Below, one piece after another: positions 11,053 to 35,136 of a stretch of 39,832 bases of DNA (within the stretch, counting starts at the first letter, position 1; every line of letters begins with the position of its first letter). The DNA lies in NCBI GenBank assembly GCA_032718475.1, contig JAUCBJ010005755.1:1-39832 (forward strand), in the 5' to 3' direction. A program made the position numbers and the translations under genes. This DNA is from Nemertoderma westbladi. Taxonomy: Eukaryota > Animalia > Xenacoelomorpha. Below the pieces are notes generated by a model that did not search any database, was not told the origin of the DNA, and worked only from the letters and a program-made list of their open reading frames with translations.

Positions 11053-12048
11053 TTAATCAGATGGGTGTTTTTCTGCCAGTGTCTGCAGGGAAAAAACAGA
11101 GTTTATTAATTCCAGTTCATAATCTCTGATACTCGAGTTTCTATAAATTCGGTATTTATAATAAAGAAGTCTTTGCTGTAAGTTGTCTATACAATCCAGC
11201 GATAGAACCAAGGTGTCATACTTCAACATACTGTACACGTTTAGTCCCGAGAGAGGCATAACTATGGAAGCTTTGAGGGAGTAGAGGGCCTCTTCCATGG
11301 CTGGACTAAGTGACTCTGGGGTGTCTCCTACGTATAGAACAGAGGGACCCCAGTCTCGGACAGAATACAAATCGATAAGAAGCTGCCGGTCGGCAAACGG
11401 GATGTCTAAACTGTCCACGATAAACAGATCGTTTTGCGCGAGTTTCAATGAAAGAGCCACACGCAGGCCTAAAGCCCGTTCCTCGGCGGAAAGTTCATAG
11501 AAATAACTGGTGGGACCACGTGGGCCTTTACGATGCCCCCCGCCTTTCCATAGAACGGAACGTCTGCTCCCGTGACGTGCTCTACCGGTGCCCTTTTGAG
11601 GCCACGGTTTGCGCCCCCCCTTCTGTATCTCGCCTGGACTCGGGACTTTGTCGTAGTTGATGTACCGGTACCAGCGCTGCCATTCCGCGCATTTCGCGAG
11701 GATGTCGAGACGAGGTGCGGTGGAAAATACCTCCGGGTGTAGTTGTACGAGTCCCAGTCGTAGGGGTTCAACCTGGGACAGGGAATCCAACCAGACCTCC
11801 CGGGGTTCCATGTGCACTGGATGGTCCAGTTTCAGTCTGTGGATTAACGGTTGTTCGTAAACCGAGTGTAATTGTTCTGTTAGGTTATTAAGATCAATCT
11901 CGCTGTTACCTGGTTCGACTACATTTGTATAGAATCGATGAGGAGACAACCGGGCGATGGACTTACCGATCAATAACCTGTAGTTGAGTTTTACCGTAGT
12001 TCCCACTTTACGGGAATAATTAATAATGTTCAATAATGGTTGGAACAT
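11053..12048 (-). CDS. MRPL4: Mitochondrial ribosomal protein uL4m (39S L4), single coding exon
   Basis: 331-aa ORF with L4 motifs GGRKPWPQKGTGRARHGSRRS..WKGGG...GPRGPTSYFYEL, LHPEVFSTAPRLDIL, WGPSVLYV and GLNVYSMLKYDTLVL. The basic N-terminus is consistent with a transit peptide. Confidence 0.95.
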   Translation of the reverse strand: MFQPLLNIINYSRKVGTTVKLNYRLLIGKSIARLSPHRFYTNVVEPGNSEIDLNNLTEQLHSVYEQPLIHRLKLDHPVHMEPREVWLDSLSQVEPLRLGLVQLHPEVFSTAPRLDILAKCAEWQRWYRYINYDKVPSPGEIQKGGRKPWPQKGTGRARHGSRRSVLWKGGGHRKGPRGPTSYFYELSAEERALGLRVALSLKLAQNDLFIVDSLDIPFADRQLLIDLYSVRDWGPSVLYVGDTPESLSPAMEEALYSLKASIVMPLSGLNVYSMLKYDTLVLSLDCIDNLQQRLLYYKYRIYRNSSIRDYELELINSVFSLQTLAEKHPSD

Positions 12049-12420
12049 TGTTTAAGCTGTGACTCCCTCCACTCAAACCGGTACCGATAGAGAAGTAGGA
12101 ACAGTATAACAATAGCAAGGCCTACTAAAGAGTTTAGGCTGTTAGGCATAGTAGGTTTAGTATTGGCTACAACTAGCCAATATCAGAATATTGCAATGCA
12201 ATTAGGTAGTACAGTTATAATACTGCAGTAGGGAGTGGGGAGTAGGCCTACTGCAAGGCCATATTCTAAACAACGTTGTTTAGATAGCCTTGGCCTACTG
12301 CCAGACTACAGTATCTATTACTGTTGGTAGCTACAGGTATAGTACAAGTAGGTAGCTTAAGCTTTGCAGTAGGTACAAGTAGATAGCTCAAGGGGGTGGG
12401 ATGGGGGGGGGGGTTGGTTG

Positions 12421-13511
12421 TGGGTGTGGGTGTGGGTGTGGGTGTGGGTGTGGGTGTGGGTGTGGGTGTGGGTGTGGGTGTGGGTGTGGGTGTGGGTGTG
12501 GGTGTGGGTGTGGGTGTGGGTGTGGGTGTGGGTGTGGGTGTGGGTGTGGGTGTGGGTGTGGGTGTGGGTGTGGGTGTGGGTGTGGGTGTGGGTGTGGGTG
12601 TGGGTGTGGGTGTGGGTGTGGGTGTGGGTGTGGGTGTGGGTGTGGGTGTGGGTGTGGGTGTGGGTGTGGGTGTGGGTGTGGGTGTGGGTGTGGGTGTGGG
12701 TGTGGGTGTGGGTGTGGGTGTGGGTGTGGGTGTGGGTGTGGGTGTGGGTGTGGGTGTGGGTGTGGGTGTGGGTGTGGGTGTGGGTGTGGGTGTGGGTGTG
12801 GGTGTGGGTGTGGGTGTGGGTGTGGGTGTGGGTGTGGGTGTGGGTGTGGGTGTGGGTGTGGGTGTGGGTGTGGGTGTGGGTGTGGGTGTGGGTGTGGGTG
12901 TGGGTGTGGGTGTGGGTGTGGGTGTGGGTGTGGGTGTGGGTGTGGGTGTGGGTGTGGGTGTGGGTGTGGGTGTGGGTGTGGGTGTGGGTGTGGGTGTGGG
13001 TGTGGGTGTGGGTGTGGGTGTGGGTGTGGGTGTGGGTGTGGGTGTGGGTGTGGGTGTGGGTGTGGGTGTGGGTGTGGGTGTGGGTGTGGGTGTGGGTGTG
13101 GGTGTGGGTGTGGGTGTGGGTGTGGGTGTGGGTGTGGGTGTGGGTGTGGGTGTGGGTGTGGGTGTGGGTGTGGGTGTGGGTGTGGGTGTGGGTGTGGGTG
13201 TGGGTGTGGGTGTGGGTGTGGGTGTGGGTGTGGGTGTGGGTGTGGGTGTGGGTGTGGGTGTGGGTGTGGGTGTGGGTGTGGGTGTGGGTGTGGGTGTGGG
13301 TGTGGGTGTGGGTGTGGGTGTGGGTGTGGGTGTGGGTGTGGGTGTGGGTGTGGGTGTGGGTGTGGGTGTGGGTGTGGGTGTGGGTGTGGGTGTGGGTGTG
13401 GGTGTGGGTGTGGGTGTGGGTGTGGGTGTGGGTGTGGGTGTGGGTGTGGGTGTGGGTGTGGGTGTGGGTGTGGGTGTGGGTGTGGGTGTGGGTGTGGGTG
13501 TGGGTGTGGGT
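12421..13511. repeat. Perfect (TGGGTG)n hexamer array, about 181 units
   Basis: Uninterrupted over ~1090 bp; ends in TACCCCCC. It explains the poly-PT, GV, CG and WV ORFs. Confidence 0.98.
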
Positions 13512-14074
13512 ACCCCCCTGTTTAGGGTAAACGATAACAGCGAGAGAGAATGATGATTCCGAAATTGCTGGTTCCGATTCCGATAGAGAATCTGACAGTG
13601 ATACTGGTACTGGTTTGTTATATAATCTACCGGTACCTGATTATGAATTATTGAGGGAATGAGACCTATGGGACTGGGGCGGCGTGATATTGCATATGCG
13701 GAATAAGACTCTGAATACACTGCAGTCTGACGGTTGGTTGCCGTGATGTTATCAATACAACTGGAAGCCTACAAACACCCACTGTTCATCACGAGCGAGT
13801 ATAAACTGATCATTTTGATAAAATTACATCTCGATATCAGTATACAACAATGTTGCGCTATTTTATTTACAATTATGTTGTCGGGTCTGCTGGGTAAATA
13901 ACAAAACATTAAAGAAAATCAGATTTGTATGTGTTCTATTTTACGGTATTCTGCTATTTTTTACGATAAACCAAGATTGTGCTCTGGCGGTTTTGGTAAT
14001 TACCAAACTAACAAGCTGTGAATTGCTGTAAATTAATTTGTTATTAATTATAATATTAATGTTCACAATTCTAT

Positions 14075-15895
14075 GTTGATTCTAAAGAACTAAAAACTGA
14101 GTTCGTAGGACCACCACAACTGAAGTTATGTACAGCTAAATTACAATAATATTTTTTTCTAAAATGTTGGAGCACTGGCGGGCTACTACTACTACTACTA
14201 GGATCGGCATGCTGCATTGCAGCTGCATTTTTAAAAATGCTGTGCCGGCTTGTCAACAAAATTGCACCGCCACAACTCCCTATCACCCATGAAATTTGCT
14301 AGATCATCCGCATCTTTAAGGCCAGTGTCCTTTAAGATGCGTCTCAAGAAAGTCATGGGCTGTCCACCATGCTTATTCACTCCATGAGGCTGCCAAAGTA
14401 CAAGATTATGCACTGGCTGGTCCTCACGGCGAAAGCAATGTCCTGCAAAGCGGAGGCGATTTTGTTCTAGTGTCAAGCTTGGGGGAACCAATGAGACACC
14501 TCCAATGTTATATAGTGTCTGGTTGGAGATGTGTGCATTGTACTTGACACAATGAACCCGGCGTAGCATTCTTGTGAATGTGCCATCCAGAGATTTGGTG
14601 TCCTCAGCAGTTAGAGCCCAGCATGGACTCCCATAGAGGAGTACTGGAACTACTGCTGCTCTAAATAATCGGACCTTAAGTTTCCGATTAATTCTCGGTG
14701 ACTTCCAAATCCTGGAAAGCCTATTCAAGGCTGCCCATGCCTTTCCCTTACGTATTCGAAGGTCCTCACCTGACTTCCGGATCCATGATCCCAGGTAACA
14801 GAAGTCGTCCACATGCTCAAGCATACCATCCTTTGAGCTTATGCTCATCCGATCAGAGACTTGCTGAGGACTTTCAAAGTTAACTGTCAGTATTTTGGTC
14901 TTTCTGGAGTTAATAAAAAGACCAACACTAGAAGCAGCATGTTCTAATGAGCTGAGGAGCCGTTGGGCTCCCTTTAATGATTCTGAGAGTACTCCTAAGT
15001 CATCAGCAAAGTCTAGATCAGTTAGGTAGTTGGCAGGATTTCCTCGACTTCTGGAGCCAGTAGGTGGAGTTATCATCACCCCATCATCATTATGATGATC
15101 TAAGGACATGCGTAGAACATAGTCAACCACAATAATGAACAAGAATGGTGCAAGTGTGTCTCCTTGGAGGGCGCCCCATAACACTTCAAATGGTTCTGTG
15201 TCACCGTCAACAGTAGACACAAATGTTGTCGAACCATCGTATACTGATCTGATTGCTGCAATAATTTCATCAGGAATCCCATATAATGAAAGTATGCTGA
15301 ACATACGTGAGCGAGAGACTGAATCAAAGGCCTTGAAGAAGTCAACAAAGATAACAGCCAGATGCCTGTCTTTCTTTTTTGATAATTCTTCAATTATCCT
15401 TCTAAGTGCCAAAATGGGCTCCATGGTCCCACGACCTTTACGGAACCCATTCTGATTTCCACGGAGCAGTCTCTCAATGGGATCCCTGATGCGATTTAAT
15501 AGAATCCTATTGTATAGCTTTGCAGCAATCGAGATCAATGAGATACTGGCGGGCACTAAATTTTAGATCCCTGGTCGGGAAAGGGTTAAGCGTAGCAGTC
15601 CTGATAACAAGTATTTTTCTGATAAGCCAAATGATGTGTAAAGGTTACAGTATGAATAATATTATTTATGCGATTCTAAAGAACTAAAAACTGAGTTCGC
15701 AGGACCACCACAACCGAAGTTATGTACAGCTAAATTACAAAAATATTTTTTTCTAAAATGTTGGAGCACTGGCGGACACTACATTTTATATCCCTGGTCG
15801 GGAAAGGGTTAAGCGTAGCAGTCCTGATAAGAAGGATTTTTCTGATAAGCCAAATGATGTGTAAAGGTTACAGTATGAATAATATTATTATGCAT
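14075..15895. repeat. Tandem duplication of a ~230-bp unit; first copy interrupted by the RTE
   Basis: 14078-14183 joined to 15555-15670 reconstitutes a unit that is repeated intact at ~15672-15895 (GATTCTAAAGAAC...AGCACTGGCGGACACT...CCCTGGTCGGGAAAGGGTTAAGCG). Confidence 0.85.
14184..15544 (-). mobile_element. 5'-truncated RTE-like LINE with open RT domain
   Basis: RT motifs NQNGFRKGRGT, FVDFFKAFDSV, GALQGDTLAPFLF, LDFADDL, FCYLGS; stop at 14231. Short 3' UTR and (TAG)n tail at 14184-14200. 10-bp TSD ACTGGCGGGC at 14174-14183 and 15545-15554. Confidence 0.93.
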
Positions 15896-17760: not shown

Positions 17761-18068
17761 CGCATTCGGTATTTCTTCCCATTCACACCATTATCCTCCT
17801 GGAAACGTATATTGTAGGATAGATTAATGGTGGATTAGGACCGATAACTTTTTACTTTATAAAATAAAAATATACTTTAAAAAATACTGTAACTTTCACT
17901 GATGTGGAACTGCAGTATAGTAGTATCACTGGGGATTTTTCCATTGACAAGAGTGGTCTAATTTGGGCTACCATTATCTAAGGTAGTGCTTTTCCAGATA
18001 AAAATTTTAATATTGGGGGATATTTTTTGATGACAGACTTTCGTATTGCTAAGAGAGGAGGAAGTGTG

Positions 18069-19313
18069 TGTTCGCGCTTTTGAAGACCTTTAGCAGTTTA
18101 ACCTGCCAAAATTTATATGTCTTCTAGTTAATTAAAACCACTTTAGCATACGACAATAATTTATGCTAATACGCAAAACATTAGCCGAAGTCAGCCCATG
18201 CGCGATCATTCACCCGATGGATCTACACCCGGGAGACTGAATTCGGATGCTTGAATTGTATTATTACAGTGTAAGGTTGCAGTGTATACCTAATGTATTA
18301 TTCGATAGATCGTTAATAATTAATCTCTGACAGATATTATTGGCTTTCGGGAAATATTAACAGTTCCTTTAGGACGTGGCGCTTTATCTATTTAAACAGA
18401 ACTAAGACTTATACTAAAACGCAACGATACTGCTTATGATTAAAGTATAAAGCGTATTCTTTAGGAAATACTTTGTTACCAATCACAATCATACACACTA
18501 TTCTGCCGACCGTCAGTATATTTGATCATACATAAAGAGAGCAGTAATTGACTCACGTAGGGTCTGCTAAATAACATTGGATTCAATACACACCACATTA
18601 ATATAAATCGCAATTGTTATGTATAGCCGGTCTCTCTAACCTGTAGTGTTATCAAGAAAATTGGGAATTGGGTGATTTATCCGTATTATCCAAATAGCAA
18701 TATTTCCATCAACAAATAGGTACAATTAATAACTGACGGTAAAATAACAGTACAAGCAATATGATTAATGCAGTTAAGATTGATTAAATTGATCGGTAGT
18801 TAGTTAGGTTAGATTTGATGAGGTAACAGTTTATACTTTCGATAATTCAAGCAGTTTACTATAGTTCTTCCCAAAAGGCCGGTGTTTCTGGCTTAGACAG
18901 CAATAACAACAAAGTATCAAGAAAAAACAGTAAGACTGAACACTCTCCTTATGATCGACTAAAAGCTACACGTCGACAGGAAAAATCGCTCTGATTGGCT
19001 CAAGCCAAACAAAGAACCACACATCCAATGGCTGTTTCCATGTCAGCAACCAGCTGTTAGATGTCGTAATATGAATCATCACGGCTAAGCTGTGAAAGGT
19101 AGTTGGTGCATTACAAGTTTTTTGCCTTACCATGTTCGCCAAAACACGTATATAGCAGAATGATTTTTATGTCCGTTAAAACACCTGTAAAGGTACCTTG
19201 CGGGCGAGGGGAATATATATACAGTTAGAAAACCTTTTTAGAGTATTCCAGCGCCTGGGGGAGAACTGGCCAGCAAAGGCAAACGTATCAGTTATCCCAC
19301 AAAAGCTTTTACA
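18069..19313 (-). repeat. 3' LTR (1245 bp)
   Basis: TGTTCGCGC...AAGCTTTTACA on +. Constant offset of 10891 to the other LTR; no mismatch seen by eye. Confidence 0.97.
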
Positions 19314-19321
19314 CCGCTCCC
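19314..19321 (-). promoter_or_regulatory. Putative polypurine tract
   Basis: Minus strand GGGAGCGG directly abuts the TGT start of the 3' LTR, which fixes the orientation in agreement with gag. Confidence 0.55.
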
Positions 19322-19391
19322 AGAAAATGGGATTTAAGTCTATAAAATATACCAAATCACAGTTTCTAAAATATAAAAATACTCTAAACAG

Positions 19392-20697
19392 TTAGTCTTT
19401 CTTGCGCGGACGGCGTTTACGCAGCTTTTTAAAGCTAGCAAGAGTCCTTTTCTCTTTGGGGCGAGCCACTTTACGAGGAGGGCTATAACTCCTGGGTGAA
19501 GGGTGCAATATGATTGCATCAGAAGGTATGGGATTGCGATCGGTATATCCGCCGGTCGAAGTACTGGGTTGATTGACATCAACGTCCGGGGAGAGGGGTC
19601 TAACGGCTTTGAGAGCTCGTTTCAAGACAGCCGCTCTTACGGGTCCTTTACGAGTGGTCTGAACGAGGGCCGTGGGTGGACCATAGGCAGTTAGAAACTT
19701 CCTTGGTTTAATGGTTCTTTCCAACTCGCGTTCGCGGGCTCGGTACTCGTAAGGCCGTCGATATACTTCCTGTAACTCGATATGCGTGATTTCTGTTCGA
19801 CAGAAGCGAATAGATAAGGATGGAACGCATAAATTCCTTCGTAAGCGCGTCCAGGATAATAGCGATGGCGCGAATCACGATGTAAATCAGCGTTCGCTTC
19901 CCAAGCTCTAATGTAACGTAGTGTGATCATTTCATCTACGCTTTCCAAATCGCGATTAAAAAGGGCAATCGAAACTGGCGTGTCCCTTTAGTTGACAGTG
20001 GTGACATTGAGTCATAAATTGAGGGCAAACCGCAAAAATATGCAAATTATTAAATCTGCAATACGCGCAATAAATTTCCATCGTCGGTTGTTCGTGGAAA
20101 TAGGAACAGCGGACGTTTGTGTCCATGGGCGTAACATGGTCTCTCGATGCGCATAACCGACAACGTTGCCGAGAAACATAGTTGGCATGGCGATAATCGT
20201 ACGCAGTGAGACACTGTGGACCTTGATACCATTCTAGGATGTAATCGTTGTCGCTGTTCCGAGCGCGATAGGCTGAATCTCTTCAGATTCCAGACATATT
20301 GGTTCGTCTTCCCAGTCTGTTACGAATAGAATTTTCGTGATCTATTCTCGGTTTATCGTTACGACGCCGCTGGGTATGATATTTAAATAGAACCATTTCC
20401 CTTTCGGTGTCTACATCGTCCGTATCATGTAAATCGATAGGATGGCCGGTAGTTAAGAAGTCCATATACGTACCATTACGATGCGTATAGCGAGCGGTTA
20501 ATTTTCGATAGTCCAATTCACGCGTAAGTTGCTCTTGGGACATCGGCGGTTCGATATCGTTAATCGATAAATAAACGACCATCGTCCTCCGTAATAGTCG
20601 GATCGGCTTCACCGCGTATCAAGCTATCCACAAACGCTTGTAAAGGTAGAGTATATCGCTCCCTGATACCAAGGTCATCTTCTATCAATTCCGTCAT
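19392..20697 (-). pseudogene. Disrupted accessory ORF (~430 codons) with three Cys/His zinc-knuckle-like motifs and a K/R-rich C-terminus
   Basis: Manual translation past the TGA at 20283-20285 gives CRLCASRDH...C, CAYCRFNNLHIFAVC and CHHCQLKGHASFDC (20162-19965). Pieces 20697-20560, 20612-19956, 19948-19691 and 19724-19392 abut or overlap, consistent with frameshifts. Confidence 0.6.
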
Positions 20698-21504
20698 ATC
20701 TGTTATCTGAGTTTATTAATATCAATATGAGTTAATATTTTAGGCAAGCAGGCGTCGCTGCCTACTAGGCTTTGCCCCCGGACAGTGGGTTTCTCAGCGC
20801 CGATGTACCGCTGTCGCAGTGTTTACGCCAACATGTAGCAATAGCACGACAACGATAACCGGCACAAGTCCCACCACTGTCCGTCCCAAAAGCTTGAATC
20901 CACTTGAGGTTATCTCGGTAGAGTTAGGGCTATTTTACAATTGCGATTAGCTACTGTAAACACACTTTAGTAGTAACATTCACCTATAAACGCACAAATT
21001 CCATACAATCATTACTTACTGCACACATGCATACCATTTGTCCGTTAGTCAGTGTCTTCCAGAATGTCACGTATTTACTATGTATCCTTGGATACTAATA
21101 GTGCGCTATGTATACTCTTATGCTACGCAATGGGGCAAGCTTTTTATTGTTCTTTTAACTTGCTTCTAATTCTAGCGTGGGTGTTGCCATGGTGACATTA
21201 TGGAAAACTAGCGGTAGAATTAGGGCAATCCTCATGCATACAGATCTGGGATGTTATTTAATAGTAATTCTTTAATTGTCAATATCCTCTTTATGCATGA
21301 TTTTATAAATTTTATCGGCTATTGACTATATGCTGGAGATTCTCACACTCTAATACACTCAATATGAATCTCCGCTCCCATGATCTATTAATTACTGGAA
21401 TTTTGGGAATGTTATAAATTGTACAAAATGACAATTTATGAAATTCATTTAAATATGAATTTAATTTATTCCCGTGAATTTTATTATTTGATGTTAAATG
21501 GACA

Positions 21505-21800
21505 TAAATTTTATTCCAGAGCAAGTCTGGGGACATAAGATCCTTAATTCTATGAAATTTGTCTTTTAAGAGTATCGGTAAGTGCTACGATATCTTAATC
21601 GACTAGAAATTTTAAAGGATCGGGATTTTACAGATTTTAATAAATATTAAATTAATATTTAGGATGGGCACCGATTTATTCCAGAACTTGTCTGGGGACG
21701 TTAACCACTGATTCTAGAATTTGTCTTTCAAGTATATCGGTGGGTGCCACGATATCTTAATCGACTAGAATTACAGATGGTCAAAGTTTAACAGATTTAT
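21505..21800. repeat. Diverged ~165-bp tandem duplication in the 3' internal region
   Basis: TTTATTCCAGA..GTCTGGGGAC...ACGATATCTTAATCGACTAGAA occurs at ~21510 and ~21676. Confidence 0.8.
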
Positions 21801-22312
21801 TTGCGATTTACGCTACTGTTAGAGGGACATCACGCTACTATATGTATTATTTGTTATAAGGTAGAAGAGCAATATCGCACGAAGCAATGTCAGTGTGAAG
21901 AGGCAAGTCGTTTCCAAGGTCTACCCAGAGCTTGGTTTAGCCGAGACACGAGGATCTGAACTTTGCATTCCTAATACTCTGCCTACCCATAATACTTAAA
22001 TATAGTAGTGGCTTTACTGTACTTTAAGAAGTACTGACATGTCATCTTACTATAGTCTCGCATTTATAATATAATACGGACAGTAAGGAAAGAGAAAATA
22101 ATTACTTCTTGCCGTCGCACTAAATATATATTATAAGTAATTATGTACGTAATAAACACTAATATATTGCACTAATCTACTAACATTCTAAAATAACATT
22201 TTACTAAATAAAATTAAATAAAAACGATTATAATAAGTACATAATAAAGTTCGCATATAAAATGTAATAAAATAGATAAAATAATATAGTCATACACCCA
22301 CTCCATATATAA

Positions 22313-25300
22313 TTACGTTATGGAGTCCCTAGATCTTTGTCGAATTAGGGAAGTGGTCGTAGGAAGAGTATCCTGCCTTCCATGGTTTCCGGACAGTTTT
22401 CGGTCTCTTTCCAGTAAACCTAAGCGACCAGCTGGGCGATTAGGCTGTCGTGTTACTTCCGCCGCTCCCTTGGCCTGTCTAATCTCCTCAGTGGTAAGAT
22501 GAGGAGGCCATTCATCTTCTTCTTTACTTAGGGAGTCGGGTCCACCTAACCAGCCTGGAGTATCTATCAGTTCTTGAAGAGTTGCTCCTCTGGAAGCGGT
22601 GTCGGCTGGATTAATCGTCCCAAGGCAATGTCTCCATTGATCTACATTGGAGTTAATATCGTCATTATCTGAGGAGTATGGTGTTCCCTCAGTTGGGTGG
22701 TCCACATTACTGCTCTCCACTTCCCCCTTTACTTGGTATTCCTGTTGTTGAGGTAATCTCTCTTTGAGAGTTCTACGGGAAGGGCCAGTGAAGTACCAAC
22801 CTACTCTAGTTCTTACCGCATAGGTTTGTAGTGGCTGCGGTTGAGCAGGTCGTTTTTCCAATGTCTCGAGCGCCTCGTGCGCGTTTTGGCCGATAAGTAT
22901 TTGCACTCCAGGATAATCCGTCTGGAATCGAGGTATCTTAAGATGTTGGATGCTCTCATCCTCGTCCCAATTATAAAGGTCTGCTTGGGTAGTAGCGAAG
23001 TTCTTTATAGCCACCATTTTTACTGACCTTATACTTTGTGCTCCTAACTTATCCTGGGGGGTGGACAACGCACCTACATAGTAATCTGCCGTTATGGTAG
23101 ATTTCCAAACCTGCATAATTCCGGACATATTCAACTTAGTTTGGAATTTGGGTTGTCCAGCAAAGATATCTTCGGCTAGTTCTTGATCGATGAATGTTCC
23201 TGTGCTGCCGGAGTCAAGTAGGGCGTTCACTATGTAACTCTTGTTGGGACCATGAACTCGAACTTGCACTACAGGAAATTCTCTTATTCCTATGTTGGAA
23301 GTTGGAACTTTCCAAGATGGTTGTTTGTCAAAAGGAGTTGGAGTAAACTCGTCAGTGTCCTTTTCATCCGTAAGTGCTCGATACACTGTGGTATTTATTA
23401 GGTAACAGGATTCGTTGGCATCGGAGAATTCGTCCGTATAGAATCCTTCCCACTCAGAACTTTGGTCAGTGTCGTTCACATCACTGAATTGGACATGTGA
23501 TTTGGGCTCACTTACCTGACTAGGGTTGTTTCGTTCGAATTCCGTGTGCAACAAGCTATGATGTTTCGCGCCGCACTTAGCACACCTTGCGTCAGAGTAA
23601 CAGGTTCGCCGCTGGTGTCCGCGTCTGAGACAGTTATAACATAACCGTTTATCCCACAGGACTCCACGTCTATCTGCCATGGATTTCTTTAGGAATTCTG
23701 CACACGCACTCAAACGGTGGGGCCCGTCGCACAGCGCACATTTTGGTTTGATGTTACTCACCTTAACTTGGTTGACGTTCTGCACTCTCGTTCTTTCTTC
23801 GGGCTTTCTTCCGTGAATTCTCTTAGGAGATGTAGGAGGAGTTGTTGTTACCTGTTCTCTCCTGTCACTGGTTCGAGACTTGTATTTACTTACGTCTTTA
23901 TAGGTCTTGTTGTCATAGTAAGATCGTTCGGTGTCTTTCCCGCTGTCCTCTTCTTGAGAAGCTTGGCTTTCGCCGTCGTCAGTATAACACACTGGTATTA
24001 TCCTTCTCCTAGAAACGGGTTTCTCACTTACCTTATTTTCCGATGTTTTCTCTCTGGACTGCCTTATGAGTTGTAATTTTACTTCACTATCTAAGAAGGA
24101 CATGAGATCAGCCATGGTAGGGCTTCGGCGTTGTTGTTCATTCATGTACAACACTTTCTTGTCCCAGCGCGTACATACTCCACCCTTTGGTAAAGTAGAG
24201 ACTACGGCTCCAATGACCATGGAACTCTGATATTCATGCGACTTACCTAACCAGTCCAGTTGTCTACAGATCTCTTGAATTTCATCGGAAAACTCTATAA
24301 TCCCGCTACTAAGGAAGTGTCGGGGGGCTACTAATTTTGCATACAAATACTTAGCTATGTTATCCTTGTTACCATACCTGATGTTTAGTGTATCCCAAAC
24401 TTGTCTCAATCCATCTGGATGTCCAATAAACTTTAACGCCATTAACTTGGGAGGTCCTTCCAAGCACTTGATGAGGAATCTAAGTTTCTCTCCGTTAGAT
24501 AGTACAGAGTTCTGTATGCTATCTTTGTAATATTCGTTGAAAGGTAACCATTTCATCTCATCTCCATTGAATTTGACGATCTCTCCCACTTTGACCGCTT
24601 GGCGGGCTTCTGTTCTAGCCATCTGACGCGTAAAGCTTTCTTGGACCATCGTGTTATTTAATATCGAATTATCTGTATATAAATTTCTCGGATCATTATC
24701 AGGTCTATAGGGAATATCATTAATAACAGGTCTATAATCACCCTTAATAGGGTTTGCTATAGGAGTTTCAACTTCACTAGCAGTATAGATGCGTGTAGGC
24801 TCTACACCTTGCGCATGTAATACTTCAGACCTAACGGGTTGACACAATGTTACAGGGAGCATTGGTATGCCTTTTTGTATATTGACTAATTTGTCGCGTT
24901 CTAGCGCGATACTTTGCTGCACTTCTTGCAACTCTGCTCTACCTTCCCTCACTGTTCCCTTAAGTTGGTGGACAGTCTCCTGCATCTGTCCTAGCAGAAG
25001 ATTCATCCCCCGCCGTCCCTCTTCCACCCACTCAACCGCCGAAGCGGGAGTCGCCAACATAGTAGCGGGCTGACGCGGGACGACGGGAGACAAATTATTG
25101 ATTTCTCTCTCTGCTATCTGGACAGGGGTATTTGCATGGACTGTTCCACCGGGTACAGGCAGTGTAGTGCTATGTAAAGGGAATTTAGAGTTAAGCTCTG
25201 GAAGTGTAGGGGTCTCTAGCACAGAAGTGACTTTGGGAATTACAGGCCTAATTATTTCAGGTTCATCGACTATAGTAGGGAGTCTTTTGACCTGGATAAA

Positions 25301-26488
25301 TTGTTCTATAGGTTCTGCACTACCTAATTCTGTGCTAGTTAGCTGTCTTTTAACAGCTGGGGGCAAATCAGGCAATTTGCGACGGTAATATGTTTTTCTA
25401 CGCCTACTCAAATGAGATTTATTTCCTCCGCCTTCAGGATCGGTAGTATCGCCTTCCTCCGAGGATGTGTATCCTTGACGCTTGGGAGTAGATTTTCTCA
25501 TCATCTGCATTTGATTAGCAGTAGACTGTTTATTTATACTGTCTTGCGTCTCTTGCAGCCTTTCCAACTCCAATTGGATAGTCGCCTCAGACGCTCTCCG
25601 TTCTGCTTCTGCCACTGTTGCCTTTCTTTCGGCTTCCGCCGCTTTTCTTTCTTCTTCTGCTTCTGCCGCTTTTGCCTTTCTTTCGGCTTCTGCTTCTGCC
25701 GCTTTTGCCTTTCTTTCGGCTTCTGCTTCTGCCGCTTTTGCCTTTCTTTCGGCTTCTGCTTCCGCCGCCGCTGCTGCTGCTACCTTTCTTCTCTCTATCA
25801 GTTCTTTCTTTACTTGTTCTTCTTGAACTCTAATGAGGCGGAGTTTTTCATCACATTCAGCTTGGTTTGCAGCTAACATTTCGGCATCGATTGAGTCCAA
25901 TATAAGCTTGGTTCCTTCACTATTAGGGGAAAGTCCATGCAGCCGTCTCCTCAACTCTTCGTCTCCTAGGAATCGCTGATAGTCGGACAAATAAATGTCG
26001 ATAGCGTCTCTAGTTCGCGGCTTCTCTGCTGCTGTTAATTCGCTTTCCACTTCGCTTTCCACTTCGCTTTCCACTTGAGGAGAAGCAGCGTCGGTTGATT
26101 CTTCAAAGGTTGGTCGCTCATCATAAACCGTATCCGCCATCTTCGCTCCGCGTTCGGGTCTCCGCTCAGCAGTATCCGAACAACTGGAGCCATCGGGCCG
26201 CTGAGAACTAGGTTCTGGGCTAGGAGGTTGCTGCTGTTTGATAGCTGCTTCTTGATCCCGCTTGACTTGGGCCCGAGTGCCGATGATAGACCTACGGTGT
26301 TCTACTAGTCTAGGGTCTGACACTACTACGGTAGGGATGGCCTTTCTTACAGCAGGAGGTGACTTAGACTTGGATCTAGGATGTTCTATACTGGGATCTG
26401 GGTCACTGATCTTTTTAAGACACTGTCTAACAGTCATTCTAACACTTTCCAAAAGACTATCCGACAGTGATTGGGTTGTGTCCGACAT
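22313..26488 (-). CDS. BEL/Pao Gag-protease polyprotein (1391 aa) with in-frame loss of RT, most of RNase H and integrase
   Basis: Coiled coil (AEAEAERKAKA)x3; DUF1759-like KFNGDEMKWLPF...EKLRFLIKCLEG...LNIRYG; knuckles CALCDGPHRLSAC, CYNCLRRGHQRRTC, CAKCGAKHHSLLH; protease ALLDSGSTGTFI...ILIG; RNase H tail QWRHCLGTINPADTASRG...WLGGP; integrase C-tail-like NRPAGRLGLLE. No YxDD motif. Confidence 0.93.
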   Translation of the reverse strand: MSDTTQSLSDSLLESVRMTVRQCLKKISDPDPSIEHPRSKSKSPPAVRKAIPTVVVSDPRLVEHRRSIIGTRAQVKRDQEAAIKQQQPPSPEPSSQRPDGSSCSDTAERRPERGAKMADTVYDERPTFEESTDAASPQVESEVESEVESELTAAEKPRTRDAIDIYLSDYQRFLGDEELRRRLHGLSPNSEGTKLILDSIDAEMLAANQAECDEKLRLIRVQEEQVKKELIERRKVAAAAAAEAEAERKAKAAEAEAERKAKAAEAEAERKAKAAEAEEERKAAEAERKATVAEAERRASEATIQLELERLQETQDSINKQSTANQMQMMRKSTPKRQGYTSSEEGDTTDPEGGGNKSHLSRRRKTYYRRKLPDLPPAVKRQLTSTELGSAEPIEQFIQVKRLPTIVDEPEIIRPVIPKVTSVLETPTLPELNSKFPLHSTTLPVPGGTVHANTPVQIAEREINNLSPVVPRQPATMLATPASAVEWVEEGRRGMNLLLGQMQETVHQLKGTVREGRAELQEVQQSIALERDKLVNIQKGIPMLPVTLCQPVRSEVLHAQGVEPTRIYTASEVETPIANPIKGDYRPVINDIPYRPDNDPRNLYTDNSILNNTMVQESFTRQMARTEARQAVKVGEIVKFNGDEMKWLPFNEYYKDSIQNSVLSNGEKLRFLIKCLEGPPKLMALKFIGHPDGLRQVWDTLNIRYGNKDNIAKYLYAKLVAPRHFLSSGIIEFSDEIQEICRQLDWLGKSHEYQSSMVIGAVVSTLPKGGVCTRWDKKVLYMNEQQRRSPTMADLMSFLDSEVKLQLIRQSREKTSENKVSEKPVSRRRIIPVCYTDDGESQASQEEDSGKDTERSYYDNKTYKDVSKYKSRTSDRREQVTTTPPTSPKRIHGRKPEERTRVQNVNQVKVSNIKPKCALCDGPHRLSACAEFLKKSMADRRGVLWDKRLCYNCLRRGHQRRTCYSDARCAKCGAKHHSLLHTEFERNNPSQVSEPKSHVQFSDVNDTDQSSEWEGFYTDEFSDANESCYLINTTVYRALTDEKDTDEFTPTPFDKQPSWKVPTSNIGIREFPVVQVRVHGPNKSYIVNALLDSGSTGTFIDQELAEDIFAGQPKFQTKLNMSGIMQVWKSTITADYYVGALSTPQDKLGAQSIRSVKMVAIKNFATTQADLYNWDEDESIQHLKIPRFQTDYPGVQILIGQNAHEALETLEKRPAQPQPLQTYAVRTRVGWYFTGPSRRTLKERLPQQQEYQVKGEVESSNVDHPTEGTPYSSDNDDINSNVDQWRHCLGTINPADTASRGATLQELIDTPGWLGGPDSLSKEEDEWPPHLTTEEIRQAKGAAEVTRQPNRPAGRLGLLERDRKLSGNHGRQDTLPTTTSLIRQRSRDSIT

Positions 26489-27867
26489 GTTTGTTTACAC
26501 AGTCGAATGCCTACAGCTATAAATACAGTTAAAGCAAGTCTAGTAATTCAGTATCACTGCTAGCCTAATAATTAATTACCGATACTGCTACTTAATATAG
26601 CGGGATATATATATATTATATCAGAATACCGGTATGCTTATAGTATATATAAGTATTATTACAGACTAGATTTGCCACAGAGTACCGGTGTATAAATTTA
26701 GCACAAATATATATATAAATATATAAATATATAATAGGCCTATCGTGGATACCGGTATACAGCTTACACTTATAATATATATAAAGTATAATTATGAACT
26801 AAAATTAATTACAGAATACCGGTATGATTTCAGCTCAAATTTATAGAAATAAATATAATAAGCCTATAGTAAGTACCGGTATGTCAATTATTTTTAGAAT
26901 AATTGAATTTCTGAATATTTTAAGGTTACTTAGTTACTTTAACTTACTTTATTACCGTTGTTTAAGCAGTAGTCCAACTGGTAGTGAGACCTAGTTATTG
27001 TATGACAGGCCTACTATTTATAAATCGTTTGATTTGATTTATAATATTTATATACCCGTTATATGGGTTTTTGTCAATATTTGAAATAAATGTTATTATT
27101 TCTGGGGGAGTCACTACACAGAAGCTGAACGCCTCTCAGTGAAGTGCTATTTATTTGACACTAAAACTGATAATTCTAATTTACCTAAGTTACTTAATAC
27201 TACAAATTACTTACGATACGGGTGAGATTAATTCTCTAATTAAACACAACAAAATATTACGTACGAATTTTTTAGGGTAATTTTACAGGAAGTCTACAAA
27301 CCAGTCTAACAAAGGGTTAGATTTCTGGTTATTACAATGGACAGGGTACTACGGTATTTGAAAATAATAAGTAGTAGTAAATATATTGCACTGTCCAGAT
27401 AGGAAAATACCACCGTCTGACGACCTATAACCGTATCGCTATAGGTACTACGTTATGTATCACGGATTGTTCCTACCCAGAAGCTAATAGAGCTAACGAA
27501 TGTGCCTATCAACCACTTTACAACACAAATATACTGCCTACACTAATTACTTCGGATAGCACTGTACACTAAACCCTAAATTAGGTACAAGTACCGGTAT
27601 AACAAATAATCAGTAGTTAAATATACTTGAACAGTTAAAAGAACCACGGCATCTGCTGGAGTGACCGAAGCACAAAGTCGTCAGTCTTTACCTACGCCAA
27701 GCAGCCCTGATGTAGTACCGGGGTTAGTTTAACTATAACGGTATGTATAACAAGCACAATTACTGTAGGAATAAACTTGGGGACATGAATGTTGCGAATA
27801 ATCGCATAAACTCTGAATAATAAATATTACGCTACCCGTACAGAATACTCAAACAAAATACAAACCA

Positions 27868-28385
27868 AACGCTGGCAGACTACCATCAAGCCTAAACAAA
27901 CTACTGTATGTGCAGATTCTGAAACTGTTAGTTAGTATGCGTGCTAACACGGTAGTACGACTTACTCTTTAAGAGGGGATTGACCTTCAGCATATGGCTG
28001 CCCCAACTTACTAACGGCACTTGATCAGACCAACTCTACACACGCAGCAATCCCTTCAGACCTAAAAATAGCTAGACAACAATCCAGCCTACAAATATTT
28101 GAGTAATAACTATTACGGTACCTGAACAGACCACACAAACAAACACAGGCTAAAACACTGGCAGACTACGATCAAGCCTAAATAAACTACAGTATATGCA
28201 GACTCTGAAACTGTTAGTTAGTATGCGTTCTAACACGGTAGTACGACTTATTCTTTAAGAGGGGATTGACCTTCAGCATATGGCTGCCCCAACTTACTAA
28301 CGGCACTTTATCAGACAAACTCTACACACGCCGTAATCTCTCCAAACTCAACAACAGTCAGACAGCAGCCCAGCCTACAATTATC
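27868..28385. repeat. 286-bp-spaced direct duplication in the 5' leader
   Basis: CTGGCAGACTAC...TTCTTTAAGAGGGGATTGACCTTCAGCATATGGCTGCCCCAACTTACTAACGGCACTT-type block starts at 27872 and 28158. Confidence 0.9.
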
Positions 28386-28639
28386 TGAACAATCTGAGCA
28401 GGGTCACACGCCTTCTGCTCAATATTAGCCTACTAGTAAATAAAACTGACAGAAATAGACCTAAGTAAAATCCCAATAAAAACCAGGCGTCCCCGATTTA
28501 ATATCGAGACCTACCGGTATACATTAATCAAAATCGAATAATACTAAATGTACTTGTACAGCAGTACCGGTACCGGTGATGACAGTTAGGCCTACTGACC
28601 TACAAAGTACCGGTTCAGTTTTACCAGTCACTACGGTAT

Positions 28640-28965
28640 TTTGCAACCTTATTGCCTACTGCAATAAGATTATAAACTGTTACTGTTCGTCAGAACAGTA
28701 TTAAACTGTATTTAATACCTACACTGCAATACAAGTAAACTGTTACTGTTCGTCAGAACAGTATTAAACTGTATTTAATGCCTACACTTGCAACCTTATT
28801 GCCTACTGCAATAAGATTTATAAACTGTTACTGTTCGACAGAACAGTATTAAGCTGTATTTAATGCTTACACTGCAATACAATATAAACTGTTACTGTTC
28901 GACAGAACAGTATTAAACTGTATTCAATGCTTACACTGCAATACAGTATAAACTGTTACTGTTCG
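28640..28965 (-). repeat. Five tandem ~64-bp units, each containing the LTR end plus PBS-like sequence
   Basis: TAAACTGTTACTGTTCG on + starts at 28673, 28736, 28821, 28885 and 28949; the last overlaps the LTR boundary at 28960. Confidence 0.9.
28945..28959 (-). promoter_or_regulatory. Non-tRNA primer-binding site, complementary to an LTR-internal 15-mer
   Basis: Minus strand GTAACAGTTTATACT immediately follows the LTR's CA end. It is the exact reverse complement of minus-strand AGTATAAACTGTTAC at 29728-29714. No TGG is nearby. Confidence 0.75.
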
Positions 28966-30204
28966 CGCTTTTGAAGACCTTTAGCAGTTTAACCTGCCAA
29001 AATTTATATGTCTTCTAGTTAATTAAAACCACTTTAGCATACGACAATAATTTATGCTAATACGCAAAACATTAGCCGAAGTCAGCCCATGCGCGATCAT
29101 TCACCCGATGGATCTACACCCGGGAGACTGAATTCGGATGCTTGAATTGTATTATTACAGTGTAAGGTTGCAGTGTATACCTAATGTATTATTCGATAGA
29201 TCGTTAATAATTAATCTCTGACAGATATTATTGGCTTTCGGGAAATATTAACAGTTCCTTTAGGACGTGGCGCTTTATCTATTTAAACAGAACTAAGACT
29301 TATACTAAAACGCAACGATACTGCTTATGATTAAAGTATAAAGCGTATTCTTTAGGAAATACTTTGTTACCAATCACAATCATACACACTATTCTGCCGA
29401 CCGTCAGTATATTTGATCATACATAAAGAGAGCAGTAATTGACTCACGTAGGGTCTGCTAAATAACATTGGATTCAATACACACCACATTAATATAAATC
29501 GCAATTGTTATGTATAGCCGGTCTCTCTAACCTGTAGTGTTATCAAGAAAATTGGGAATTGGGTGATTTATCCGTATTATCCAAATAGCAATATTTCCAT
29601 CAACAAATAGGTACAATTAATAACTGACGGTAAAATAACAGTACAAGCAATATGATTAATGCAGTTAAGATTGATTAAATTGATCGGTAGTTAGTTAGGT
29701 TAGATTTGATGAGGTAACAGTTTATACTTTCGATAATTCAAGCAGTTTACTATAGTTCTTCCCAAAAGGCCGGTGTTTCTGGCTTAGACAGCAATAACAA
29801 CAAAGTATCAAGAAAAAACAGTAAGACTGAACACTCTCCTTATGATCGACTAAAAGCTACACGTCGACAGGAAAAATCGCTCTGATTGGCTCAAGCCAAA
29901 CAAAGAACCACACATCCAATGGCTGTTTCCATGTCAGCAACCAGCTGTTAGATGTCGTAATATGAATCATCACGGCTAAGCTGTGAAAGGTAGTTGGTGC
30001 ATTACAAGTTTTTTGCCTTACCATGTTCGCCAAAACACGTATATAGCAGAATGATTTTTATGTCCGTTAAAACACCTGTAAAGGTACCTTGCGGGCGAGG
30101 GGAATATATATACAGTTAGAAAACCTTTTTAGAGTATTCCAGCGCCTGGGGGAGAACTGGCCAGCAAAGGCAAACGTATCAGTTATCCCACAAAAGCTTT
30201 TACA
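28960..30204 (-). repeat. 5' LTR (1245 bp)
   Basis: Copy of 18069-19313, followed by the TSD GTGTG. Confidence 0.97.
29746..29891 (-). promoter_or_regulatory. Candidate LTR promoter (CCAAT box plus TATA-like motif)
   Basis: Minus strand AGCCAATCAG at 29891-29882 (NF-Y consensus). TATAGTAAA starts at 29754, 26 nt upstream of the proposed start site at 29728. Confidence 0.45.
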
Positions 30205-31389
30205 GTGTGTAACGGGAGTTGATATTTTCAGGTGCAATGTAATGCCTTACCTAAAAATTTAGAACATTAATATGATTATTTTTCTACCTAATTTCTAATA
30301 ATTGAAATGTGAAACGAATATTCGAAGCTGAGTCTTATCTCAGTGCGTTTAAATGTTACCCTATATTACTTAGTACATTCGATAGGTTTCGTTGTACTTC
30401 TCATAAACTTAGTGCCGGATTAAGCCTCTCTGGTGGCCCTTAGGCACATTTGAGCAATTTCCAGAAATGGCCCGAAAATTTATATTTTTCCACAAACCCT
30501 TTCAAATGAAAAAAGCCACAGAAATAGTGGAAATATTGTGAAAGGAATATATGTTCGTTGGTAAATGTAGCTTGATGAGTAGCATTCACGCACTCACATG
30601 TAGCACTGCGCGCAAATAATCTACGAGAATTAGAGCACTGCGATAGTATGATTTATTTGCAAAAAGTATATTGTTTTAATTCAGAACTGTAACATTATAG
30701 GCGAGACCCAGGCCTAGGCCCATAAGTATTTCGCAATAAATGCGAACCACCTGCCTATAACTGCCTGCTAAATATTGTGTTTAATCTATTAACACAACAT
30801 ATATAACCTTTTCATCAGGTTCTACATTAGGTTCATCAGGTATAAAAAGCGTTATTCCTGTATTCAGTGGAGTTTACAACAAGCAAATATCTGCCAGTTA
30901 TGTTTATAGTTTATATACTTTATACTTACAAAGTACCTTTCCACTGATGATAAAACCAAAAATTTGGCTTTGTTTTTATTGAGAGCGTTTGAGCTGCGGG
31001 ATCAACAGCTGTTGGTTAAGTGTTTAACCAATATCTTTGTCGTACATAATGTCAGTGCAATGTTGTAACCAATATTTTGGCGGTGCCAGGAATGTAAAGA
31101 TTGTTAAATTTCATTGTCAATATTTCTGTGCTAGTGAAATTCTTGTAATTCAATTTATACCAACAATATCCTTTACTGAATTGTTGTAGTAATAGTTATT
31201 AAAGTAACTAATTAGGGTTAATATTTATACGGTAATGTAATTGTCATTAAAAGCGTTGCCTAGCAACGGAGATAAAAAATAAATTTCTAAGGCAGTGATG
31301 AATTTATTACCTTAGTGGTAATAATTTTACATACCGGTAGTGCTATCATTGATAATGTTGGACAGACACAATGATGCGGTTGTGGTTAA

Positions 31390-33512: not shown

Positions 33513-33910
33513 CTACAAAAATAATAAAAAATAATAATTATGTTTTCTGAATGATATTTCTGAAAGCTGAGCGAGAATAATGAAAAGCAGAGGGGGAATG
33601 TAACATATATTGTACTTGATCAGACTATACATTCACCACCAGAAGTGTGCACCACCTGCCTTTCCTAGATCTCCCGAGCATCTTGAGATCAACGGATCAA
33701 CCACATAAATCTCCAATTACCACGCATTAAAGTTTGTAGAGTCGCCTTACGATGCCAATAGATCAATAGATTCGGATTATGTGTTTATGGCTTATGTGTA
33801 TGGGGGTGTGTGTGTTTGGGGGGGGGGGGGGGTGAGTATGTTTATGTATGTTTGTATGTATGTTATTGGGTGGGGTATGTGTATGTTTAATTATGAATAA
33901 AATTATAAAG

Positions 33911-35136
33911 GAGCCCATTTTGGCACTTAGAAGGATAATTGAAGAATTATCAAAAAAGAAAGACAGGCATCTGACATCTTTGTTGACTTCTTCAAGGCCT
34001 TTGATTCAGTCTCTCGCTCATGTATGTTCAGCATAATTTCATTATATGGGATTCCTGATGAAATTATTGCAGCAATCAGATCATATACGATGGTTCGACA
34101 ACATTTGTGTCTACTGTTGACGATGACACAGAACCATTTTAAGTGTTATGGGGCGTCTTCCAGGGAGACACGCTTGCACCATTCTTGTTCATAATTGTGT
34201 TTGACTATGTTCTACGCATGTCCTTAGATCATCATAATGATGATGGGGTGATGATAACTCCACCTACTGGCTCCAGAAGTCGAGGAAATCCTGCCAAATA
34301 CCTAACTGATCTAGACTTTGCTGATGACTTAGGAGTACTCTCAGAATCACTAGAGGGAGCCCAACGGCTCCTCAGCTCATTAGAACATGCTGCTTCTAGT
34401 GTTGGTCTTTTTATTAACTCCAGAAAGACCAAAATTTTGACAGTTATCTTTGAAAGTCCTCAGCAAGTCTCTGATCGGATGAGCATAAGCTCAAAGGATG
34501 GTATGCTTGAGCATGTGGACGACTTCTGTTCCCCGGGATCATGGATCCGGAAGTCAGGTGAGGACCTTCGAATACATAACGGAAAGGCATGGGCAGCCTT
34601 GAATAGGCTTTCCAGGATTTGGAAGTCACCGAGAATTAATCGGAAACTTAAGGTGCGATTATTTAGAGCAGCTGTAGTTCCAGTACTCCTCTATGGGAGT
34701 CCATGCTGGGCTCTAACTGCTGAGGACACCAAATCTCTGGATGGCACATTCACAAGAATGCTACGCCGGGTTCATTGTGTCAAGTACAATGCACACATCT
34801 CCAACCAGAACTACATAACATTGGAGGTGTCTCATTGGTTCCCCCAAGCTTGACACTAGAACAAAATCGCCTCCGCTTTGCAGGACATTGCTTTCGCCGT
34901 GAGGACCAGCCAGTGCATAATCTTGTACTTTGGCAGCCTCATGGAGTGAATACGCATGGTGGTCAGCCCGTTACTTTCTTCAGACGCATCTTAAAGGACA
35001 CTGGCCTTGAAGATGCGGATGATCTAGCAAATGTCATGGGTGATAGGGAGTTGTGGTGGCGCAATTTTGTCGACAAGCCGGCACAGCATTCTTAAAAATG
35101 CAGCTGCAATGCAGCATGCCGATCCTAGTAGTAGTA
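33911..35136 (+). mobile_element. Second 5'-truncated, frameshifted copy of the RTE-like LINE
   Basis: Near-identical to the reverse complement of 14184-15422, with small indels; same GCATGCCGATCC(TAG)n end. Confidence 0.93.

Follow-up and report, generated by a model that had tools for sequence, protein, structure and literature searches.

A BEL/Pao retrotransposon of Nemertoderma westbladi (GenBank assembly GCA_032718475.1, contig JAUCBJ010005755.1) carries, directly after its 5' long terminal repeat (LTR), a primer binding site (PBS) that is complementary to a segment of its own LTR and lacks the TGG of a tRNA-type site. The 39,832-nt stretch of DNA that we analysed as a whole is referred to here as the window. 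Self-complementarity of the PBS and LTR is a real, non-chance feature of this element and, judging from its sequence, the element probably uses its own RNA, instead of a tRNA, to prime minus-strand synthesis. The evidence comprises the anatomy of the element, the exact register of the pairing, a block of sequence shared among family copies and the self-pairing seen in relatives, where the letters differ.

The element occupies 18069-30204 on the minus strand (12,136 bp, with an internal region of 9,646 nt) and its features are collected in the table. It displays the hallmarks of BEL/Pao elements, including TG...CA LTRs, a target-site duplication, a polypurine tract, a DUF1759 Gag, Cys/His knuckles and a protease. 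The main frame encodes, in this order, a BEL Gag, three Cys/His knuckles, a DSG protease and a short RNase H-end remnant, with DUF1759 located at amino acids 642-770 (Pfam E 8e-12) and the remnant of 45-50 amino acids being 36-53% identical to BEL proteins. All of the homologues (10/10) are BEL/Pao polyproteins with both DUF1759 and Peptidase_A17. The nearest protein relatives are distant, mostly with 23-36% identity in the Gag-protease region and at best 41% over a short stretch only, and none were found among viral contigs. Reverse transcriptase (RT), integrase and most of RNase H are missing, and the element is therefore non-autonomous. Its identical LTRs and intact target duplication indicate recent reverse transcription despite the absence of a TGG PBS. 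We conclude that this is a young non-autonomous BEL/Pao-derived element which departs from the ICTV family description because no TGG follows the LTR.

Table. Features of the BEL/Pao element and its candidate priming signals (window coordinates)
Feature	Position	Strand	Remarks
5' LTR	28960..30204	-	1245 bp, TG...CA, 100% identical to 3' LTR
3' LTR	18069..19313	-	1245 bp; end matches junction at first PBS unit
Target-site duplication CACAC, upstream copy	30205..30209	-	5 bp
Target-site duplication CACAC, downstream copy	18064..18068	-	5 bp
Non-tRNA PBS GTAACAGTTTATACT	28945..28959	-	adjoins 5' LTR; begins GT
Candidate self-primer AGTATAAACTGTTAC	29714..29728	-	LTR positions 477-491; exact 15-nt complement of PBS
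Candidate self-primer, 3' LTR copy	18823..18837	-	
Block common to family copies, 36 nt	29712..29747	-	primer with ~19 nt before it and 2 nt after it; flanks variable
Possible GT-AG intron, 349 nt	29727..30075	-	predicted; removal would extend pairing to 18 nt (5+13)
Predicted U5 hairpin, 7 bp	28981..29000	-	just upstream of LTR end; from folding only
Tandem array of five LTR-end+PBS units	28641..28964	-	units of 63-85 nt; unit number appears variable between copies
Main open frame, 1393 codons	22313..26494	-	ATG 26488; BEL Gag and protease, RNase H-end remnant
Broken extra reading frames	19395..20618	-	Cys/His knuckle-like motifs; between gag-PR and 3' LTR
Polypurine tract GGGAGCGG	19314..19321	-	adjoins 3' LTR; resembles the GGGGCCGG tracts of relatives

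The extra reading frames are interrupted by a stop at 20285-20283 and by frame changes further on, end in a basic tail and have a weak zf-CCHC likeness (best score 0.87) that is a lead only. The 2.5-kb leader contains a 286-bp unit in two tandem copies (27812-28393, 85% alike), of which one-copy and other forms occur in contigs of public runs. Elsewhere in the window, an intron-less frame for mitochondrial ribosomal protein uL4m lies at 11053-12051 on the minus strand, with at most 56% identity to any database protein. Two copies of a non-LTR RT fragment (14190-15422 and 33910-35136; RVT_1 and a weak DUF6451) are 96.7% identical, stand in opposite orientation and flank the BEL element on both sides. 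From 1 to ~3700 runs a long tandem array of an 18-bp unit that is strongly strand-skewed, and a second skewed stretch, G+T-rich and with long open frames, lies at 12266-13768.

On the minus strand the 5' LTR (30204-28960) ends ...CGCGAACA at 28960 and GTAACAGTTTATACT abuts it without a gap, the TGG of a tRNA-type PBS being absent directly after the 5' LTR. A preliminary description of this DNA had reported the gapless junction without TGG, the perfect 15-nt complement in each LTR and a pairing register ending on the LTR terminus. Our analysis agrees at every coordinate: the match is exact in both LTRs and motif-PBS pairing stops exactly at the LTR boundary. The end of the 3' LTR corresponds to the junction with the first PBS, which locates the 3' end of the primer at that point. 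Among ~9,600 start positions of the internal region, the PBS is the longest complement of the LTR, and dinucleotide shuffles of the LTR never gave a match above 12 nt (0/5000; 15 nt observed). The further LTR-end+PBS units of the array, at 28900, 28836, 28751 and 28688, have Watson-Crick matches of 13, 13, 11 and 13 nt, respectively. A search for a tRNA-like primer gene within the element with ARAGORN found none, and there was no Rfam match of note.

Copies of the family were read from contigs of public sequencing runs, the stretch being present in 6 of the 9 runs listed, of which four were analysed; these describe a high-copy and variable family. In run X1, summed depth (contig depth, which is not copy number) reaches ~400,000-500,000 at 29716-29739 and drops to ~12,000 at 29704-29709 within the examined interval 29650-29800, where depth below ~29680 is reduced by the edge of the stretch; runs X3 and X4 have a similar pattern across the same interval. 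A 38-nt contig of X4 (depth 5562) matches 29712-29747 without difference. In X1, X3 and X4, contigs have 29712-29747 in common and diverge from the window sequence at 29747-29750; loose contig ends, of several dissimilar types, set in on either side, at 29693-29709 and 29747-29750. Together, the depth peak and the loose ends on both sides indicate that the motif and ~19 nt upstream are shared, in a block ending 2 nt past the motif, on a scale at which only blocks of at least 31 nt are visible. The letters downstream of the block, in a segment that is simple in sequence, differ between copies in three runs. A single X5 contig (depth 5) departs from the window sequence at 29722, inside the motif. 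Single-base variants in the motif or its flanks were almost absent among those listed and the tables did not discriminate, the wider table giving 40 of 270 sites; a matched (compensatory) PBS/LTR change was not seen within the family of the window element itself.

The promoter signals were also found as previously described, with CCAAT at 29889, the TATA-like TATAGT at 29754 (26 nt before the motif) and 769 nt from the motif to the LTR end for the proposed R-U5 of ~770 nt. The claim that this TATA-like motif fixes the start of transcription at 29728 is not supported, since the TATA-like motif lies outside the shared block; in run X4, no contig covers 29752-29757. Of the self-priming BEL reading proposed in the preliminary description we therefore retain the self-complementary non-tRNA PBS, with self-priming as its best explanation, and set aside the fixed start. 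Other promoter-like signals occur further upstream, including a TA-repeat at 30112 and TCAGTC at 29830. The primer of most relatives would be internal to the transcript, at a splice joint that is predicted, and a Tf1-style cap position is hence not required; transcription may begin elsewhere than at the motif. A contiguous primer within a transcript that starts further upstream is a reasonable possibility, and a contiguous primer with a start near 29728 would be rather unlikely.

To survey relatives, 11 full-length proteins among the best Gag-protease matches were aligned and 79 metagenome loci were fetched. For 8 non-redundant loci the 5' LTR end was fixed independently by a direct repeat; for 17 further relatives, from loci with a known LTR start, it was chosen by the pairing scan itself and these are hence less independent. 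Self-pairing of 10-13 nt was found in 7 of the 8 anchored relatives. Six of them (L007, L026, L045, L053, L071 and L074) pair over 10-13 nt with the joint that removal of a predicted GT-AG intron from their own LTR would create, L003 has a contiguous 10-nt pairing, and L034 has a TGG-type PBS and no pairing with its own LTR. With shuffled PBS sequences, matches as long as those observed arose in 0-3 of 200 trials in the seven positives, compared with 199 of 200 in L034. The comparison of PBS and LTR among related BEL families, which had been suggested as a check, had a positive outcome: 24 of 25 relatives have an own-LTR match of 10-15 nt, each with different letters; by type, 21 match across a predicted splice joint, 3 are contiguous and 1 is TGG-type. 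In a 26 x 26 matrix, cross pairs of at least 10 nt are few (23/650), and the own-LTR match, set against all others, is highest in 18, tied in 5 and lower in 2 of the 25 relatives. Matched changes on both sides of the pairing distinguish L010 from L015. The paired site begins with GT in 15/24 and with AT in 8/24 relatives, GT being also the form in the window element, and the PBS register starts 0-6 nt from the LTR end. The predicted donors are mostly GTAAGT or GTGAGT, accompanied by pyrimidine-rich acceptors.

A uniform scan gave values of at least 11 in 16/24 LTR-anchored regions, compared with 0/17 regions without a located LTR, with single loci often not significant alone (positives reached by 0-6 of 30 shuffles). 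The strict scan missed L008 and L058, both of which were recovered by relaxed scans. Excluded from the 25 were five loci of families already counted (L017, L022, L024, L033 and L035), two without a call (L032 and L064, the latter with no clear polypurine tract), the 17 regions used as controls, and 30 loci that had insufficient upstream DNA or lay outside the survey.

The predicted LTR introns of relatives range from 37 to 423 nt; two of them, in L039 and L046, are only 38 and 37 nt long and have GTTTGT donors. Repeats of ACTTAC, the complement of the GTAAGT donor, occur in the first 90 nt of the LTR in 9/25 relatives (L003, L005, L008, L010, L015, L016, L058, L071 and L077), including three intron-less LTRs, and are absent from the window LTR. 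One idea is that these repeats, being transcribed only in the 3' LTR copy, could mask its donor and so allow the intron to survive reverse transcription.

In a quick tree of 20 rows, the contiguous elements L003 and L005 both have a spliced element as sister (support 100 and 95), a placement that by itself suggests repeated intron loss among relatives. Clean intron loss was not visible in global alignments of L003/L010 and L005/L015, which are too diverged. The window element falls outside the clade of 14 self-pairing rows, on a long branch (quick tree, missing data), and the tree thus gives no support for shared ancestry of the trait. We lean somewhat towards a broader reading in which a large animal BEL/Pao branch would have dropped tRNA priming, the spliceosome would build the self-primer from two LTR exons and splicing would act as a switch for reverse transcription. 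The window element would then either carry a ready-made primer after intron loss or itself splice a 5+13-nt primer from a tiny first exon.

In the proposed mechanism, transcription would start at or upstream of 29728, and Gag/nucleocapsid would open a leader hairpin and anneal the motif to the first PBS; the annealed motif may derive from the 5' LTR copy, from the 3' copy or from a second RNA. As in Tf1, the RNA would then be cleaved immediately 3' of 29714, probably through the RNase H activity of a trans-supplied RT. Extension of the resulting 3' end from the LTR terminus would give a strong-stop DNA of ~750 nt that would transfer to the 3' copy. Splicing would assemble the primer of most relatives, and the window element would carry it ready-made. 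Annealing of a primer to its site usually needs a chaperone, and one would be needed here too: the 15-bp motif-PBS duplex has a predicted energy of -18.9 kcal/mol, compared with -24.7 for the local hairpin of unit 1, which is predicted to hide the PBS. One predicted fold pairs the motif with the PBS, and 8 other folds (four start sites, two ends) give a first-PBS pairing probability of 0 to 0.11. With the full array the motif is predicted to prefer unit 5, at a probability of 0.98 (start 29728), 0.49 (start 29760) or 0 (starts further up). These folding predictions depend on the boundaries chosen and do not settle the pairing. Points that weigh against self-priming also include the distance of the primer from the LTR end, 769 nt compared with about 50-200 nt in relatives, the lack of a canonical poly(A) signal (AATAAA or ATTAAA) in the LTR, and, as described above, the lack of a matched change within the family and the long branch of the element in the quick tree.

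The pairing could instead be a structural or regulatory long-range contact, serving as a packaging, dimerisation or translation switch, with a host RNA such as an internal tRNA fragment acting as primer. The predicted burial of the PBS within a stronger local hairpin fits this explanation, and the accessible text of two papers describes half-tRNA primers in copia lineages (PMC6317226) and, in fungal GalEa, a conserved hairpin that replaces the PBS and whose role is unsettled (PMC5445492). Against this, the differing PBS of every self-pairing relative is matched by its own LTR in a register close to the LTR end; because each PBS is different, host-RNA priming would need a different host RNA for each. 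The lack of pairing in the TGG-type relative, and of a tRNA gene or notable Rfam match in the element, also make such a contact unlikely.

Within self-priming itself, the window element may also splice its primer, joining a cap-proximal exon ending at 30076 to 29726 to give an 18-nt primer (5+13), in which case the acceptor AG within the 15-nt match would be coincidental. A splice-joint match is the rule in relatives (21/25), among which weak donors and AAG acceptors also occur; the pairing would score 18 nt, and the exon-end word that it needs arose in 2.8% of shuffles. The TA-repeat at 30112 lies ~30-35 nt upstream of the exon end, and the ~19 nt upstream of the motif are common to family copies. 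However, the donor is weak and the acceptor pyrimidine-poor, both below splice-site thresholds, relatives place 3-7 nt of the primer in exon 2 and not 13, and the contiguous match is already longer than the primers of most relatives. A first exon of ~5 nt would be unusual, and no contig joint across the intron was present among the joints listed, including those of run X5 (RNA only by guess), in which U3 is covered. On balance we consider this spliced form improbable for the window element. An alternative donor at 30021 was rejected, its pairing being by eye no better than that of the contiguous motif.

Other splice-like signals on the minus strand of the LTR (30021-29784 and 29447-28993) include donors at 30021 and 29447 and a pyrimidine tract with AG at 29784, and acceptor-like sites occur close to the LTR end and immediately ahead of the gag ATG; a spliced gag mRNA without the PBS is possible.

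That the match is a functionless by-product, either an inverted PBS copy captured in the LTR or an AT-rich chance, is very improbable. Duplication is frequent in the leader, with its five PBS units and the 286-bp tandem, and the LTR contains the 7-mer TAAACTG three times, but the shuffles, the block shared across copies with differing flanks and above all the cross-pairing matrix, with self-pairing in different letters in nearly all relatives, already largely refute it.

Self-priming by the element's own RNA, the reading that we prefer, has so far been demonstrated in Tf1 alone, with predictions for related gypsy elements and for a single copia lineage. If true for BEL/Pao, it would add a third superfamily, making self-priming a repeated solution, and it would explain BEL elements without a findable PBS. 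It would presumably also make such elements insensitive to 3' tRNA fragments that target the PBS, and the splice-joint form in relatives would tie host splicing to the onset of reverse transcription. The window element provides single-base predictions in the form of an RNA end at 29714/29713 and a strong-stop DNA of ~750 nt. Cer7 of Caenorhabditis elegans is reportedly a BEL element that has been proposed to supply its own primer.

The replication of BEL/Pao elements is described as poorly understood, and Belpaoviridae are characterised by host-tRNA priming from an 18-nt PBS for tRNA-Arg or tRNA-Gly (ICTV, PMC8742986). The window element shares with this profile the LTRs, the knuckled Gag, the order of protease and RNase H, the polypurine tract and an animal host, and differs in that it and 24/25 relatives have a self-complementary site in place of the tRNA PBS. 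In the accessible portions of the sources consulted, self-priming is listed for Tf1/sushi, Tcn1, Tj1 and TAR copia only (PMC6317226, PMC7175516, PMC4600332, PMC5341516, PMC6934838, PMC5445492, PMC3601003, PMC5443660). A term look-up in the available text of PMC554778, PMC3118150 and PMC9094657 found nothing on priming, and that of PMC13524379 and PMC8220671 added nothing on the subject. In the open-access literature we found no account of BEL/Pao elements that self-prime or build a primer by splicing; Repbase, GyDB, subscription papers and supplements may hold a mention.

The TAR lineage of plant Ty1/copia elements (Houba, Osr-1) is the closest parallel in kind of evidence, self-priming being likewise predicted there from LTR-PBS complementarity alone; its hosts are plants and, unlike for the BEL/Pao relatives here, the accessible text mentions no splice joint (PMC6317226). 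Tf1 pairs through its first 11 bases, and cleavage by RNase H falls between bases 11 and 12 (PMC7175516, PMC4600332, PMC5341516). Tf1/Tf2 of Schizosaccharomyces pombe, Tj1 of S. japonicus and the Tf1/sushi and Tcn1 chromoviruses likewise have no tRNA PBS and, as far as these sources describe them, a PBS complementary to their own LTR. The primer of Tf1 is the 5' end of the transcript, a position that the motif of the window element might also have. A U5 inverted-repeat stem beside the PBS is a further trait of the Tf1/sushi group, for which the predicted 7-bp hairpin at 29000-28981 is a candidate counterpart. Tf1 pairs 11 nt, compared with 15 nt in the window element at 769 nt from the LTR end and with five tandem PBS units. 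In most BEL/Pao relatives the primer would arise only through a predicted splice, for which the accessible Tf1 literature gives no counterpart. The Tf1/sushi group belongs to Ty3/gypsy and the window element has a BEL-type Gag and RNase H end; it is thus not a member of that group, and the likeness to Tf1 lies in what is likely a shared mode of priming, by the element's own RNA.
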